From NCBI GenBank assembly GCA_951406725.2, contig CATOCA020000001.1, positions 9,982,001-10,046,000 on the forward strand: 64,000 nucleotides of DNA, in the 5' to 3' direction. This document shows, piece by piece, positions 4,102 through 59,976 of this stretch. The notes beneath the pieces are model-generated. The model did no database searches. It saw only the letters and a list, made by a program, of their open reading frames with translations, and had not been told where the DNA came from. A program made the translations under genes and the position numbers. This stretch comes from Octopus vulgaris. Lineage: Eukaryota. Within the stretch, counting starts at the first letter, position 1, and every line of letters begins with the position of its first letter.

Positions 4102-4165
<64 letters not shown>

Positions 4166-4415
4166 TTTAGCAATTAAGGACAACTTCTTAATAAGGAAAA
4201 CTTAACAAGAAATTATCAGGTAGATAGCGTGAAAGACCTCATAAGAGAAAAAATTTCGAAAATAATTCTTTCTTATTGAACATATTAATTTATATATAGA
4301 GGGCATTATTATACATACATGTCACACGCTAAGAGTGACAAAATTAGTCATTTCTACCAAAAAATTTACTAATCCCACCGAATGCAATTTTTCAAAGTAA
4401 GACATTTAAAAATAT

Positions 4416-4464
4416 AGACTTGTATCACCTGTGATTTCATACCTCTGTATTCATCAGCAAGCCT
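4416..4464 (-). ncRNA. Type I hammerhead ribozyme (antisense to the PLE ORF)
   Basis: Minus strand reads AGGCTTG CTGATGA ATAC-agag-GTAT GAA ATCAC-ag-GTGAT A | CAAGTCT. Complete catalytic core, all three stems pair. Confidence 0.88.
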
Positions 4465-4774
4465 GAACGTATCATCAATGAACGGCCATTTACCGGATGT
4501 AATATATGTAAACTCACCCAGGTGCTTCGTTGATGTTGATCAGTTAGCTGCTCGGCTTAGACGAGGTAGGGTCGTTTATTTATGATATGCTTCTTTCTCG
4601 CTTATAATCACCCCACATTACTGTATTGTTAAAACAGTATAGTTTTTTTTGGTGCATCTAAGTTGGGTACCATATTCAAGTAAATTCTTTTAAATTAACT
4701 TGAATCTTTATTGCTTTTTGAATATATTCCCATACAGTCTGTATGTTTTTCTGGTACTTAATTTCTCAACAAGA

Positions 4775-7615
4775 ATGGAAAAAGTAAACATTGAGTTCTC
4801 CCCTAAAGACATCCCCTTACATAGTATAGATGAATATAATTGGCTTCTCATTCATAGGATTAACGATTTCATTAGAAGAATCAGGTGGAAAACGTACCAT
4901 TTTGATGTCAAACAGAAGAAACCACAGGAAAAGAATACCGAAAAGAATTTTAGAAGAATTTTTAAAAGTAGAAAAAGCCCACCTCAGAACCCATTCCTGG
5001 AGAACTTTGAGAAAGACTTGCTGAATCTTATAGATGATATTAGCTTCTAGGAACACCCGTTAAGATATAACCCTCACCTTAGACACCTTAGGAACTTTAT
5101 TCAGTCAACCCGGTGCAAACATGGAATCCTAGTACCAGCAGATAAAACGGGTAATATGTATAGAGTTGATTACGATATTTATAGCAAATTAATTAGGAAG
5201 GAACTAAACTCCAAATATAAAATTACGACTAAGAACAATTTGAAAAAAGTAAACATGGAAATGAAAGAGATCATGGAGAAACTAAATTTAACGGATAGAA
5301 CAGAGCCACTTAAACCGTGTGAGCCTAGGATCAACCTTAAAGACCACAAAAAGAATTTCTTGGAAAACCCTTCGGTAAGGCTGATCTGTCCAACTAAGTC
5401 GGACATTGGCCGACTTAGTAAATCTATCCTGGATACTGTTCTACCCCAAATAACCCCTCTTCTCCCCTTAAACCTATGGCTAAGTACGGACGAAGTTCTA
5501 AAATGGTTTAACTCTCTAACTAATACTAGTAGTCTGTCCTTTATTCAGTTCGATATTAATAGTTATTACTCTAGTATTTCCCCTATCTTACTCAACAAAT
5601 CACTAATATTTGCCATGAATCGCTCCCTCATATCTAGAGAAGAAATCAATATTGTGCTACTAGCTAGGAAGACATTTATAGAATTTGAAGATAAATTATG
5701 GACTAGAGCAGATACACCAAATTTTTTTGATATACCAATGGGTTCCAGTGATTCGGCTGAGGTAACCAACCTAGTAGGCGCATATCTATTAAAATGCATA
5801 ATCAAGGACATCCCAGAAATACAGGGGGGTCTATATAGGGATGATGCTCTGTTTGTTATCCCTAGTAATAATAAATCTGTTATAGAAAGGATTAGAAAGA
5901 AAATTAATAAGTTCTTTAAGGATTTCAACCTCAGTATAACGTATGAACCGGGCACTAAAATAGTTAACTTCCTAGATATTACGCTAGACCTTAACTCCAA
6001 GCTACATTACCCATTTAGAAAGGAAGGCGAAATCACGAATTACGTAAATAAATTATCAAATCATCCCCCAAATATAATTGAATCTTTAGTAAGAAATATT
6101 TCATTAAGAATTTCAAAATTATCATCCAATAAGGATATATTTAACTCCCATTCTGAGCATTATAATGCGGCGTTAACTAAGGCTGGATACAACCAAAAGA
6201 TTACATTCGTTGATAAGGAGAACCCACGTATTCCTAATGAAGAAGTTATCAGTAATCACGTAAGCAGCAATACAGACCAAGCCCGAAATAAAAGTAGAAT
6301 TAAATTAACGGTAAACGCTAATCTAGCGTACAGGCCCAACAATTCAAATAGAAGCATTGACCAGAACATAGGTAACTCGGATAATATCAAAGTAGATAAA
6401 CCTAAGATACACACAAATAAAAATAAAAATAATGGTAATAAATACAATAACTCCGGTGAGATGAATAGTAATAATTCTACGAACCCTAAATTTAATAGAA
6501 AAGATATATTATGGCTGAATATTCCTTTCAACTGTGCGATACAATCGGATATACAGAACAAATTCAAAGTAATTCTGGAAAAAAATTTCCCTATCTCTCA
6601 TAGATATCATAGAATTATTTCTAGGAAAACAGTTAGGATTTCTTATTCAACCCTCCCAAATATGTCCACTTTAATAGCTAAGATTAATAATAACAACATT
6701 AAACTAGCCAGGAAAGATAGAAATAAAAATAATAATATCAGCATGAATACCAATAGCAATTATAATAATACTACCAACAATAAAAACAGCAATAGTAACT
6801 ATCAAAACATAGGTGAAATTAGTAACCACAGAATGACTAATAACATTAACATTAATAGTAATAATAACAATGCCGATATTAATAGAAGTAATAATGTTAA
6901 TAATAGAAATAATAGAAATAAGGCTAATGGAGAAAATAAGGAGAATGAAAATATCAGTGATATCTATAACAACAATATGCAGTCGGATAAAAAGACTAAC
7001 AATAATAGTAACATTACCAATAATATAAGAAATCATGGTAGGACTTTAGACCTAAATGATGAAACAGAAGGATCAATAAATAATAGCAATACTTTAGATA
7101 TCAGCACCAACTATAGAAATGATAATCAAAATAATAGGAACCTAAGACATCTACCCAAGAATAATCCAAAGCCTGAAGTTGTTCCTCCTGTGTGTAAGTG
7201 TAGAATAAAATCAAAATGCCCGGCACCTGGTCTATGCGGGGAAAATAATGTAATCTATAAATGTACCATATCCACGGAGAATAACAAATATTTTTACATT
7301 GGATGTACAATTAATTTTCTAGCCAGAGTCAGAAATCACATCTCGTCTTTTAAATTACGTCATAAGGCTGGTACCACCACACTTTCAAACAAAATCTGGG
7401 AACTCAATAATAATAATAATAATTATAACCTTAATTGGGAAATAGTTAGGAGAGCAATTCCGTATAAAAATAGTAGGGTTGGTTGCCAACTATGCTCCAT
7501 GGAGACGTATGAAATTCTAAAGCATAGAAAACATAGAAACTTATTGAATAACCATATCGAACTAGGTCAAGTTTGTGTCCACGCTAAATTGAAGACTTTA
7601 AAATATTTTAAATGA
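4775..7615 (+). CDS. Penelope-type reverse transcriptase + GIY-YIG endonuclease, about 946 codons, interrupted by one in-frame TAG at 5048-5050
   Basis: FSPKDIP..FIRRIRWK N-terminus and VPADKTGNMY lie in frame across the TAG. RT motifs FIQFDINSYYSSI, PMGSSDSAEV, LYRDDAL, VNFLDITL. Linker CKCRIKSKC (CxCx5C). Endonuclease NVIYKC..YIGCT..RVRNH, CQLCSME, CVH. Confidence 0.9.
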
Positions 7616-8637
7616 TTAGAATATTCGTAACTAGATAGATAGATAGATATAACTTGTTTTTTACTAGTATAGCACTGCTTTAAGTAGATAACTAAGAGTT
7701 CTCACACTACAGTTATCTTTTTCCTTATATCTGCATCAGTTTTTTGAGAACAGGGAAATGAATAGTACTTATACGCTGCTTAATTGAGGCTTTATTTAAT
7801 TTCAAACTCATAATTTTAAATCTTAATTTTAAATCTTAATTGTAATTTTTAATTTTAATTCTTAACTTAATCTAATTTAAGTAGCATAACTCTAATAAAA
7901 TAAAATGAGTTACTAAAGCCCCATAATTCTATTTCAAAATTAAATAAATTAGGCTACTCCCTCGGTGATAATATGATTATCTTCATTATGATAGACAATC
8001 CCCTAACACCTTGTAAATGATCTTCTAAGATTTGACCTGTAGTCCGTCAATATATGAATAATAACGGCAACTCCTTAAGACAATAAAATGAATAAAGTAA
8101 ATAAATAAATTTTAATGACTTTTTGATAAGATTATACTTAGATTTTCCTAATGTATTTTCTTTTGATCTTAGCATCTGACCCCTAAACCCCTGACCGTGT
8201 TATCTCTTTAGATTCTCTTTAAATTCATAGCTGATTTCAACAGCAATAAATTAGCTGTTTTACTGGTCAAAGAATAATATTCTCCTCTAGTTCCTAGATG
8301 CCTGTAAATTAAAACCAGACTTGCCGTCTACTAATTCTTCTGTATAACTAGAACCCTCTTTTTTTCTTTTTCTTTTTTCCCTTCTTTCCCTATTTCTTTC
8401 TCTTTTCTCTTTTTTCTTTTCCTTCTTCTTATTCTCTTTTTCCTTTTCTCTTCTCTTTTAGTCCCCTCCCCCCTTTTTGCTCCCTCCTCCTTTATTTTCT
8501 CTCTTTTCTTCTATTCCCTTCCCTTTTCTATTCTTTGCCTCTCTAGAAAGCCCTTCAGCCTTTAAAAGTTAAATAGCTACAGCCTCGTGTAAATAGCAGT
8601 AATTGTGATTAATGTGGCAAATACCTAATCATATAAC

Positions 8638-8928
8638 AAGAATTGATACCTACCTCATTGTGTTCAACCATTGATAAATTTATCGCCTGTGAATATGAAA
8701 TTCCTCTTCATTTCTCTGGAAATTTACATCTACACCATTGGAAATTGTGCATCTATACAAAGGATTAATTCACCCTCTCTGTAATGCTAATAAGCAGGAA
8801 TTGAGACCCACCTCGTTGTGATTAACAATGGATAAATTTGTCGTCTGTGAGTATGTAATCCCTCATCATATCTCTGGAAATTCATATGTGCACTATGGAT
8901 TAGGTCACCTTCTCTGTGATGCTATTAA
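8638..8928 (+). repeat. Diverged tandem duplication (period about 158 bp) in the PLE 3' region
   Basis: GAATTGATACCTACCTCATTGTG..CTCTGGAAATT..CTCTGTAATGCTA recurs as GAATTGAGACCCACCTCGTTGTG..CTCTGGAAATT..CTCTGTGATGCTA. Confidence 0.8.
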
Positions 8929-9074
8929 AACTTTTTTAAAATTCTGTGATAAGACTGTACATCATCTTTAAAGAACTTTAATGAACTTTGGAAATCTGTT
9001 TATGTTACTTAATTATCTACATTACTTCATGAGTATAGCCTCAACCACTAGGATGTCTAGAGAACTCACATGTA

Positions 9075-9165
9075 TTTTAGCTGATGAGTACGGGACACGT
9101 TTATATGCTGTAATTTTTGCAACTTTTAATAAAGCCTGTCCTTGTATGAAACGATTGTACTAAAA
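9075..9165 (+). ncRNA. Type I hammerhead ribozyme with minimal stem III at the PLE 3' end
   Basis: TTTTAG CTGATGA GTACGGGACA..TGTCCTTGTAT GAA AC-gatt-GT A | CTAAAA. Predicted cleavage after 9159. Confidence 0.88.
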
Positions 9166-9192
9166 ACCTATCCATTCTTGTTGCTTCTTTCT

Positions 9193-9231
<39 letters not shown>

Positions 9232-22087: not shown

Positions 22088-22471
22088 AATTGTGGTGGCT
22101 ATCGGCAATTTGAAACCAACAAGGAAATAATTCACAGTCACTAAGTGTGAAAAGAGTGCAGTGAGCACCAGCATTATTAGAAATATTAGTCATAGACTCC
22201 TTAGCCACAAAAAGACATATGGTCTGTTTGCATTGACAGTGGGGAGAACATTCCCCACGGTAAGCCAGATGGATTAGATTAGCATGGTAATTTCTTATAG
22301 GAAGTTAATACTCATCAGCAATGCTCACTCCATTACGGCTGGTGGAGGCTAACTCACACCTCTCAGTATCATTGAGAATGCCATAGGAATTAGGGATTGA
22401 TTTCACAAAATGGCAATGTGAAGATTATAAAATATTGAAGGTAGCTAACACACATTTTAAAACCAACCAGG

Positions 22472-35200: not shown

Positions 35201-35629
35201 CTTTGGCTTAGCTATCATCCTTAAGAAGACCAACATCATGGGTCAGGCTACATAGGACATCCCAAACATACATATTGGAGACCACAGATTACAAGAGGTG
35301 GAGAAGTTTACCTATCTGGGCTCTATCGTCACCTACAACCTATCCCTTGACGCTGAGCTCAATATACGCATTGGAAAGGCAGCTGCTGCGATGGCCCAAC
35401 TCTCCAAACGGGCTTGGGACAACAATAAGCTGATGAAGACCACGAAAATGAAGATCTACCAGGCATGTGTACTCAGCACTCTACTGTATGGAAGTGAGAC
35501 TTGGACGCTATACACACACCAAGAGCCTCACCTAAACATCTTTCACCTGCGCTGCCTCCGAAAAATCCTCCGCATCAAATGGCAGAATCATATCCCCAAC
35601 AAAGATGTCCTCAGGCAAGCAGGAATACG
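32265..35629 (+). mobile_element. RTE-clade LINE (second family): 5'UTR + APE + RT, disrupted, 3' end deleted
   Basis: LASWNVRTM, DIAGLQET, LDLIITRR..DCDTDHSL, NYRGISLLS, FIDLTKAFDSV, GVKQGCVLAP, LFADD, FTYLGS. Confidence 0.93.
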
Positions 35630-36130
35630 GTAAGCCAGATGGATTAGATTAGCATGGTAATTTCTTATAAGAAGTTAATACTCATCAGCAATGCTCACTC
35701 CATTACGGCTGGTGGAGGTTAGCTCACGCCTGTCAATATCTTTCAGAATGACATAAAAATGAGTGATTGATTTCACAAAATGGCAATGTGAAGATTATAA
35801 AATAATTAAGGTGGCTAATACGCAATTTAAAACCAACCAGGAAATTACCAATATATATATATATATATAAAATGTATATAAAAATTTATACACGGAGGGA
35901 AGACCACCATGTGGATTTCTTACATGCTAAAGAGGGAAAGCCACGGTACTGGACGAATATGTTCTTAACACTAACTTTTAGTCACCCGCTTGTAGTTCTA
36001 GCCTTCTTCACTAATTCTGTTCTCAACCATACTGAATGCGGTTATTTTACCTATGATGATCCAATCCTAAGCTATATTTGAATATAGAAATAATTGAAAC
36101 AAAACAATTAATCTCTTTAAGTGTTCAAAG

Positions 36131-53426: not shown

Positions 53427-54037
<611 letters not shown>

Positions 54038-54125
54038 TTACATTTTAGTCTCATGACTATTTTTCTTTTCCACTGGGCCGCTGGTAGTGATAAATGTTTA
54101 TCGAATTTTTACTACCCTAAATTGA

Positions 54126-54165
<40 letters not shown>

Positions 54166-54174
<9 letters not shown>

Positions 54175-54524
54175 ATTGGTGAATTGAAGAAATGGAGCTG
54201 AACGCAGATTGAACAGAAATCGTTTTATTTCATTCTACACGTGTTTCGAAAGGCACAAATTACCAAAATCCGATTGAATAATGGGACCATATTGTGTCTT
54301 TCTCTTCAGGAAGAAAATAGGAAATCCGTTGGAAAAACAAAAACAGAACGTTGTTTTTCCAACGGATTTCCTATTTTCTTCCTGAAGAGAAAGACCAATA
54401 TGGTCCCATTATTCAATCGGATTTTGGTAATTTGTGCCTTTCGAAACACGTGTAGAATGAAATAAAACGATTTCTGTTCAATCTGCGTTCAGCTCCATTT
54501 CTTCAATTCACCAATAATGTTTTA
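54166..54524. repeat. Near-perfect inverted repeat (arms about 175 bp, 10-nt spacer) with a hammerhead in each arm
   Basis: Arms 54166-54340 and 54351-54524, one indel seen. Element continues to about 54675, then (TA)n. Confidence 0.95.
54373..54463 (+). ncRNA. Type I hammerhead ribozyme (mirror copy on - strand at about 54227-54318)
   Basis: ATTTTCTTC CTGAAGA GAAAG..CTTTC GAA ACACGTGT A | GAATGAAAT. Confidence 0.85.
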
Positions 54525-54729
54525 ATTTCAATTATCCGCACCAACGCACGGTTGCAACACCATATGGTTGTACCTCCAACCGTGCTGTTTACTGCTGTGA
54601 TTTTTGCTACTAAGGTATCGGTTAAACTTTTGATTAATCTACTACAAGATTATTCATCTTTCTATTTCACATAATATATATATATATATATATATATTTA
54701 TACATGCATACATACATACATAAATACAT

Positions 54730-58740: not shown

Positions 58741-58784
58741 AGTGAGTGAGAAATAGAGAAAGTGAAAAAAAACCATTGATACAA

Positions 58785-59365
58785 GATATATAGTTCTACA
58801 ATAGGCACAATGCGTGAAATTTGGGCGAGGGGACAAGTCGAATGCATCGACCTTCATTCTTTGACTGGTACTTAATTTATCGACCCCGCAATAATAAAAG
58901 GCAAAGTTGACCTCGGCTGAATTTGAACTCGAAACATATCGACGGGCAAAATATCTGTTTCTTTATTATCCACAAGGGGCTAAACATAGAGGGGACAAAC
59001 AAGGACAGACAAACGGATTAAGTCGATTACATTGGCCACATGCGTAACTGGTACTTAATTTATCGACCCCGTACTAATGAAAGGGAAATTCGACCTCGGC
59101 TGAATTTGAACTCAAAACATATCGACGGGCAAAATATCTGTTTCCTTATTATCCACAAAGGGCTAAACATAGAGGGGACAAACAAGGACAGACAAACGGA
59201 TTAAGTCGATTACATTGGCCCCAGTGCGTAACTGGTACTTAATTTATCGACCCCGTACTAATGAAAGGGAAATTCGACCTCGGCGGAATTTGAACTCAGT
59301 ACTTAACGGCGGACGAAATACGGCTACGAATTTCGCCCGGCGCGCTAAAGTTTCTAGCAGCTCGC
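58785..59365 (-). mobile_element. tRNA-SINE family C with triplicated core (period 183-184 bp)
   Basis: ACTGGTACTTAATTTATCGACCCC starts at 58864, 59047 and 59231. Confidence 0.85.
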
Positions 59366-59901
59366 TGTTATTTCTAGTGGGTGAATGGCCTATTATGGCC
59401 GTTCCTTGATTGTGATGTTGAACTTATTAATGATCTATGACTATTTAATTTTTTCCCACTAGGCCGCTGGTGGCAAAAAAATTCTACGAAATTTTTTGCC
59501 ACCCTATATTGATTAATTATGAATTTTCTGGTTAATTCCGTAATGGAATCGGCGGCTTATATTTGCTGCCGATAAATTTGGCGCGAGTGCGATGATTTGA
59601 AAATTTTAGGTCAGATATTGCCGAGGCAGGGATTGAAGTGCCTCGTGAAAATATCTGCTCCGATCTGGCTGTTTCTTACTGACGAATCTATCGGCCTATG
59701 GAAGATTGGCTTGATTTAATTTAATCAGGTTAGTTTACCATTAAACAATAGATGAAACGGTGCATCGTATAAGAAATTACAGGGTAAATGTTTTTTTAAT
59801 TTTCTCCTGGTTTGCGGAATTAATGTTGTTTTGCGGTTTGAAGCTTTGGCTGTTATTTCTAGTGGGTGAATGGCCTATTATGGCCGTTCCTTGATTGTGA
59901 T
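59364..59901 (+). mobile_element. Retrozyme-like element: 485-nt monomer with identical 53-bp terminal direct repeats and a hammerhead
   Basis: Repeats at 59364-59416 and 59849-59901. 3' end abuts (TA)n. Homologous to 53604-54130. Confidence 0.85.
59672..59776 (+). ncRNA. Type I hammerhead ribozyme, intact
   Basis: TTTCTTA CTGACGA ATCTAT..ATAGAT GAA ACGGTGCATCGT A | TAAGAAA. Predicted cleavage after 59769. Confidence 0.92.
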
Positions 59902-59910
59902 ATATATATA

Positions 59911-59976
<66 letters not shown>

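Follow-up and report, generated by a model that had tools for sequence, protein, structure and literature searches.

Towards one end of the Octopus vulgaris DNA analysed here (a stretch of 64,000 nucleotides, hereafter the window, whose coordinates are used unless another locus is named), a sequence carrying a hammerhead ribozyme motif runs into a (TA)n microsatellite. The initial annotation took this sequence for an intact 485-nt monomer of a retrozyme-like element, bounded by identical terminal repeats and copied from a circular or tandem RNA. What the unit is, which enzyme wrote it into the genome and from what template are the questions that the locus raises. The parts of the copy are these:

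59364-59901, + strand: single-armed, 5'-truncated copy of retrozyme family A, 1.11 units long (unit 485 nt)
59364-59416, + strand: first copy of a 53-nt overlap, starting at a random 5' truncation (59364) that lies 80 nt past the cut site
59383-59404, + strand: hairpin GAAUGGCC/GGCCGUUC, its 3' edge 12 nt before the short 3' end; also kept in family B
59469-59503, + strand: hairpin, its 3' edge 17-21 nt before the long 3' end; also kept in family B
59520-59524, + strand: place of the "long", tail-bearing 3' end of family A, 236-240 nt after the cut site; internal here
59671-59777, + strand: type I hammerhead, predicted cut 59769/59770
59849-59901, + strand: second copy of the 53-nt overlap; its last base, 59901, is the "short" 3' end, fixed 132 nt beyond the cut site
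59900-59976, unstranded: (TA)n microsatellite, the target, into which the copy runs at its 3' end

The two 53-nt segments are 100% identical at a spacing of 485 nt, as annotated, and both hairpins and the (TA)n run after 59901 lie where they had been seen. Since the copy runs from +80 to +132 of the next turn, the 53-bp repeat is an overlap of 1.11 turns. The repeats are the overlap of a fixed 3' end with a random 5' truncation; they are neither termini nor LTRs, and among copies the length of the overlap follows the truncation point. The picture of an intact monomer with terminal repeats must accordingly give way to that of a 1.11-unit arm, 5'-truncated at +80, in a family whose other copies start at scattered points. 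Position 59901 would be the start of reverse transcription. At the 5' junction, as read from the sequence, there is a 2-nt (GC) microhomology with an adjoining repeat and no (TA)n, which is most simply explained by a target-site deletion. The adjoining repeat (58780-59363, - strand), which we take to be SINE-like, contains an internal 183-bp segment three times over and has its 5' end head to head with the retrozyme. The copy lacks coding capacity, as metazoan non-LTR retrozymes do and as had been claimed: the longest stop-to-stop frames wholly within 59364-59901 are of 49 aa. With its one ribozyme, it could not itself release a 485-nt circle. The nearest other site differs by 0.65%, in keeping with the youth attributed to it. 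As a locus it is real, young and ordinary, one truncated copy of hundreds.

The family is more informative. A search of the same genome with unit A gave at least 166 matches in the 40 scored of 1443 candidates, many of them in head-to-tail arrays; identity in the best 80 of those matches was 94-100%. An exact 23-mer from the 3' half of the hammerhead occurs 767 times genome-wide, and an exact 16-mer common to families A and B 2220 times, the reversed-pattern control giving 0 in both cases. Genomic tandem arrays with a period of about 485 nt, proposed as a check on the first reading, do exist: family A forms dispersed arrays of period 482-492 nt. They reach 7.2 units, every unit having a single type I hammerhead, and lie on at least 20 different contigs, each array with its own TA target and its own 5' junction. 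We collected 28 distinct cut-to-cut monomers of 474-497 nt, and another unit lies upstream of each unit. The youngest A monomers measure 482-488 nt (one 497) and those of B 474-475 nt, older A units extending up to 492. Divergence is 0.46% within an arm, 0.81% between the arms of one site and 1.98% between sites. Dispersal, many copies, low GC content and strong self-pairing are retrozyme features at the level of the family, and with the tandem arrays and an unvaried hammerhead core they uphold the retrozyme-like label at that level. By these sequence features family A is a non-LTR retrozyme, a further member of a known animal class, and 59364-59901 belongs to a young family.

Three further families, two of them sister families represented in the window, share the tandem hammerhead organization:

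53607-54130, unstranded: two-armed copy of family B (475-nt unit, about 70% identical to A), with one short and one long end
4165-4590: arm of hammerhead tandem family D (459-nt unit)
L081 6870-7510, - strand: fourth hammerhead tandem family, C (period 507 nt), weakly similar to B around the short end

From end to end of the unit, A and B align colinearly with about 70% identity. Contig C31 carries the junction of the B copy at 53607-54130 in four further places, indicating that this copy spread by segmental duplication. In another B-type array (L168 1446-3746) the 16-mer recurs every ~950 nt and alternate units differ, so that a dimeric higher-order unit is possible. The window also holds two repeat copies containing CTGATGAG, at 22100-22470 and 35620-35850 (both - strand), without a recognisable complete hammerhead.

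In the window copy, stem I of the hammerhead pairs 59671-78 with 59770-77 (8 bp), the core is formed by CUGACGA (59679-85) and GAAA (59754-57), and stem II occupies the 68 nt of 59686-59753. Stem III pairs 59757-60 with 59765-68 (4 bp), is near-palindromic and is closed by a UGCA loop; the predicted cut falls after GUA at 59769/59770. The ribozyme had been described as fully paired, with a long stem II. Its base complementarity is there, but the minimum-energy fold is predicted without stem III; forcing the active hammerhead costs 4.3 kcal/mol in the circle and 2.1 kcal/mol locally in a sister copy (L013). The + strand folds better than 100 of 100 dinucleotide shuffles (z -6.4) and the - strand is also better folded than its shuffles (z -7.2), so the strand is set by the hammerhead and not by folding alone. 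Circular folds gave z values of -5.2 for A and of -5.3 and -12.6 for B against 40 shuffles each. Rfam returned no hammerhead match in the window copy, either at the gathering threshold or at E<=10, and the long stem II is probably behind this miss.

Conservation among copies also speaks for the ribozyme. The 13 core nucleotides are unvaried in 52-59 passes from 20 family A sites, and in an alignment of 14 A and B variants the core varies only at position 7 and at the cut-site base. In that alignment, whose rows stand for only about three lineages, 97% of cells are paired, and two-sided changes are seen in 6 of the 33 pairs. None of 500 shuffles reached the observed percent paired and covariation score; the number of pairs with two-sided change is not above that of shuffles, 166 of 500 being as high. 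To be set against these figures, stem II is closed at its base by A-U in A but by A.A or A.C in B. Within family A, variable positions number 3 of 39 in the ribozyme against 70 of 446 elsewhere, which is only a weak trend. From these comparisons the hammerhead appears conserved in structure across A and B, and cleavage is predicted. Two other candidate features of the unit were discarded. For a snRNA-type promoter, the best site in A (59548, start ~59608) scores 8.6 against 19-24 for real promoters with a motif trained on 12 of 38 loci, and 16 of 100 shuffles reach 8.6. A putative intron at 59783-59862 was dropped, its acceptor AG being missing in subfamily B2 and sitting in a conserved stem. 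The U1, U2 and U5 snRNA genes of this genome (upstream of L187-L224) carry AATTAA-32 nt-ATCAGTG 57-60 nt before the start.

How did such a unit enter the DNA? The insertion sites bear a Penelope-type footprint, consisting of two fixed 3' ends and head-to-head arms, which is absent from the initial annotation. On the monomer, the 3' ends of family A copies fall into two groups, at 130-134 and at 231-240 nt beyond the cut site, and their 5' ends are scattered from 9 to 468. The 3' ends run into TA in 32 of 34 cases in A, 38 of 47 in B and 39 of 47 in D. Where two arms stand head to head, one is nearly always short-ended and the other long-ended: in 13 of 14 sites in A (the remaining one pairs a short end with another), 18 of 21 in B (14 of 17 when the five sites on C31 that share one junction are counted as one event) and 17 of 20 in D. 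Further two-armed sites on contig C1 gave 15 of 16, in a sample made up of the first 30 pattern matches and 20 hand-picked stretches and including one site already counted. After removal of 4 segmental duplicates and 1 repeat site, the total stands at 59 short-plus-long sites out of 67, the other 8 having one odd end; not one of the 67 combines two short or two long ends. The B, D and C1 queries under-sample short-plus-short and favour long-plus-long sites, while the A query favours neither. We regard this counted one-short-one-long rule as the useful part of the result. Both family A end points sit 12-21 nt 3' of a hairpin, and a CCTWRATTG-like motif can be seen by eye just upstream of the end points in families A to D. 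At one array (L173 3180-4500) the left flank is an inverted copy of the right flank, which suggests template switching onto target DNA and removes this locus as a candidate PLE-retrozyme chimera.

These traits are those of Penelope-like elements (PLEs). Insertions of PLEs include partial tandems and an inverted arm and often have the tail at one end only, and elements of the Hydra clade target (TA)n (PMC8557442). The tail has been explained in vitro by two internal starts of reverse transcription, with an enzyme that cuts and extends both DNA strands (PMC11167929). Family A displays 5' truncation, partial tandems, an inverted upstream arm, two alternative 3' ends with the tail usually at one end only, and (TA)n targeting as in Hydra and Naiad PLEs. 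Candidate mobilisers are at hand, one of them in the window itself:

4590-9196, + strand: Hydra-clade PLE with an RT plus C-terminal GIY-YIG-type frame (5051-7615) and a long-stem-II hammerhead (~9075-9165)

Judged from translations and DNA motifs against the definition given in PMC8557442, this element fits the Hydra clade (C-terminal EN, RWK, DKT, CxCX5C, CxxC, CxH, canonical hammerhead, (TA)n target). A "Naiad" label for the frame was rejected because EN is C-terminal. The frame has one in-frame TAG near 5050, and a Pfam scan of 5051-7615 matched no family. We take this PLE as an example of the candidate class and not as a demonstrated partner. Its 5' end is abutted by the family D arm at 4165-4590 without a TA spacer. 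The element is near full length, and the outer ends of the composite are long on the D side and short on the PLE side; the junction at 4590 is ambiguous between one composite event and a later insertion with deletion. A two-armed stub of another Hydra-type PLE (54150-54680), with ends matching an 899-aa family, adjoins the family B copy at 53607-54130.

Elsewhere in the genome we found about ten Hydra-like PLE families (L061-L086, L117-L136) with open frames of 720-1090 aa, one of which (727 aa) has dozens of near-identical copies. Several families have hammerheads with a 40-60-nt stem II that holds AAUAAA or AUUAAA, some with variant cores such as CCGAAGA. The autonomous PLEs of this genome have type I hammerheads with a long stem II and two alternative ends: L071 and L079 show one end of each type; at L083 the long end is accompanied by a shorter end that is atypical. 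Intact Hydra-clade PLEs with like end geometry make a Penelope-type enzyme the likely mobiliser. On these sequence comparisons we consider it very probable that the retrozyme is moved by PLE-type machinery, and likely that the mobilising PLE belongs to the Hydra clade. Against this stands the want of a sequence match: blastn found no pLTR matching A or B among the 46 PLE loci sampled (about ten families, from three protein searches).

The nature of the template is harder to settle. The outer arms of family A run through the cut site in 30 of 34 cases, as expected from the more-than-unit-length copying proposed earlier, and none of the 34 stops within 8 nt of it. Taken together, these counts mean that a linear cut monomer was not the usual template, barring jumps by the enzyme. 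Read-through is no proof of a circle, since the autonomous PLEs of this genome also show it at their cut site. Among 62 site-private alleles, 5 are found in all passes of both orientations and 4 in all passes of one arm. Another 5 are present in only part of the passes, a sign that units are not always uniform; 42 are confined to a single pass out of several, and 6 are covered once. The arms of a two-armed site share a haplotype; allele sharing and the low divergence between arms imply that both arms derive from one molecule or one source locus. The genome data fit a circle and an uncut tandem transcript alike and do not separate the two. Contigs of four runs (X1, X2 and X7, only tentatively taken to be RNA, and X15, undefined) together span the full unit piece by piece, X1 being dominated by a few deep contigs of a single variant; these contigs hold no information on ends, strand, level or circularity, and the circle junction is also present in genomic arrays.

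We lean somewhat towards a circular template rather than an uncut multimeric one. Related retrozymes of coral, mussel and axolotl build up mainly as circles (PMC7229834), and one 7-unit array has units only 0.10% apart, yet 0.51% from the nearest sampled relative. With element and Penelope-type enzyme unchanged, the template could instead have been linear, an existing array being transcribed in tandem and left uncut by a ribozyme that is slow or protein-dependent, with circles a by-product or absent. This would agree with the behaviour of an anole PLE, whose main substrate was uncut RNA and whose hammerhead mutants still inserted (PMC11167929), with a predicted fold that omits stem III, and with arrays of mixed units: the six full units of L024 vary at a single column (T-G-T-T-G-T), units 1 and 4 sharing an allele, and three units of L166 differ at 20 columns. 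Two starts in separate repeats of a long RNA would also spare two enzymes a collision on one ring. Partly cut multimers should, however, leave some 5' ends at the cut site, where none of 34 was found, and the near uniformity of the 7-unit array and the circles of related retrozymes also count against this reading; we hold an uncut template to be rather unlikely.

A second alternative places the origin of the arrays after insertion, single copies having been multiplied in the DNA by unequal crossover or slippage. The allele order in L024 resembles a duplication of three units, and satellite birth from PLE ends has been proposed (bioRxiv 10.64898/2026.07.22.740005). Many arms, however, measure 1.0-1.8 units and have fixed 3' ends, and the window copy is one of them, so that a template longer than one unit was needed at insertion; with arrays on at least 20 contigs, each having its own target and 5' junction, expansion of single insertions is very improbable. 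Very improbable too, we think, is that the unit is the pLTR of an autonomous PLE yet to be found, with the short copies as its truncated stumps: the end geometry and long-stem-II hammerhead are indeed those of autonomous PLEs of this genome, and the 46 PLE loci examined are a small part of more than 14,000 PLE RT candidates, but no PLE frame, and no RT-GIY-YIG ORF between pLTRs, is joined to the 5' end of A or B copies at 47 plus 34 sites, every one of the 28 distinct monomers has another unit upstream, and the colinearity of A and B across the whole unit implies that the unit itself is inherited.

Taken as a whole, the account that we favour, with reasonable but by no means full confidence, is that 59364-59901 is a retrozyme copy that the RT/GIY-YIG enzyme of a PLE, probably one of the Hydra clade, likely wrote into (TA)n, with a circular 485-nt RNA as the likely template. 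Where an array contains at least two ribozymes, its transcripts would self-cleave and be ligated into circles. Short, palindromic stem III ribozymes act as dimers (PMC4209133), and self-cleavage might proceed as a double hammerhead, which is conceivable because stem III is short and near-palindromic. It counts against this scheme that only 1 of 9 Xenopus retrozyme dimers was cleaved in vitro (bioRxiv 10.64898/2026.07.22.740005). A PLE-type enzyme would then nick both strands of (TA)n and begin cDNA synthesis at two internal sites, each immediately 3' of a hairpin and each serving one DNA end; each cDNA would round the template for a variable length before the truncated ends are joined. The window copy would be one such arm, after 1.11 turns, with its 5' end joined straight to flanking DNA. 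One could envision, more tentatively and as a possibility that we would not bet on, that a two-headed Penelope enzyme works on a single RNA ring, starting at +132 and +236 on opposite strands of the cut (TA)n and rolling round from both.

Several known systems resemble family A. Metazoan non-LTR retrozymes, too, are tandem repeats without an ORF, low in GC and self-paired, whose units each hold a single type I hammerhead; they are dispersed and co-occur with PLEs, which have been proposed to mobilise them (PMC7229834). Their units are of ~170-400 nt, against 485 nt with a 68-nt stem II in A, and their circles have been demonstrated, whereas family A is known here from genomic sequence. The parts of that account on which we draw give no anatomy of insertion sites and do not mention cephalopods. 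Vertebrate retrozymes, described as non-autonomous PLE derivatives, also occur as monomers, dimers and multimers together with PLEs, and their consensus range of 51-972 bp spans 485 (bioRxiv 10.64898/2026.07.22.740005). The link to PLEs rests on pLTR similarity in vertebrates and on the insertion footprint in A. No mollusc is named among the sampled classes in the sections of that study, by Li, Clavereau and Pollet, used here; by its definition L013, L016 and L023 would be active retrozymes, and the window copy, with one ribozyme, would not. Hydra-clade and other EN+ PLEs share with A the 5' truncation, partial tandems, inverted upstream arm, one-ended tail, (TA)n target, hammerhead and two RT starts (PMC8557442, PMC11167929). 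They differ in that A has no ORF and a tail of ~104 nt against 30-40, and the one-short-one-long rule is counted here, none of the 67 sites pairing like with like. Chlamys PLEs such as MRC1 are, like A, non-autonomous and inserted by PLE machinery as multicopy head-to-tail units, but their 3' end resembles that of an autonomous partner and most have no canonical hammerhead (PMC8557442). Plant LTR retrozymes are also non-coding and hammerhead-bearing, with a proposed circular-RNA intermediate; they carry a type III hammerhead in true LTRs and a 4-bp TSD (PMC4918200), whereas the hammerhead of A is type I and lies outside the 53-bp overlap.

A dependence of retrozymes on PLEs has been suggested (PMC8969392); the link was proposed in 2020 (PMC7229834) and backed by pLTR similarity in 2026 (bioRxiv 10.64898/2026.07.22.740005). 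Our literature searches brought up nothing on retrozymes of cephalopods or on the footprints that retrozymes leave on insertion, and supplements, Repbase, Dfam or subscription papers could hold these families. That retrozymes return to the genome through PLE enzymes and circular templates had thus been proposed before, not shown. Family A offers a small, defined substrate, a 485-nt RNA on which two start points have been mapped, together with a (TA)n target and, as candidate enzymes, the many intact Hydra-type frames of this genome, and it makes two questions testable in vitro, namely whether a PLE enzyme can copy a circle and why the tail is one-ended. If the two-headed ring model is true, the one-short-one-long rule and the shared private alleles would be the record of rolling-circle target-primed reverse transcription, and the presence of the Penelope tail at one end, together with the inverted pLTR, would be explained in general.
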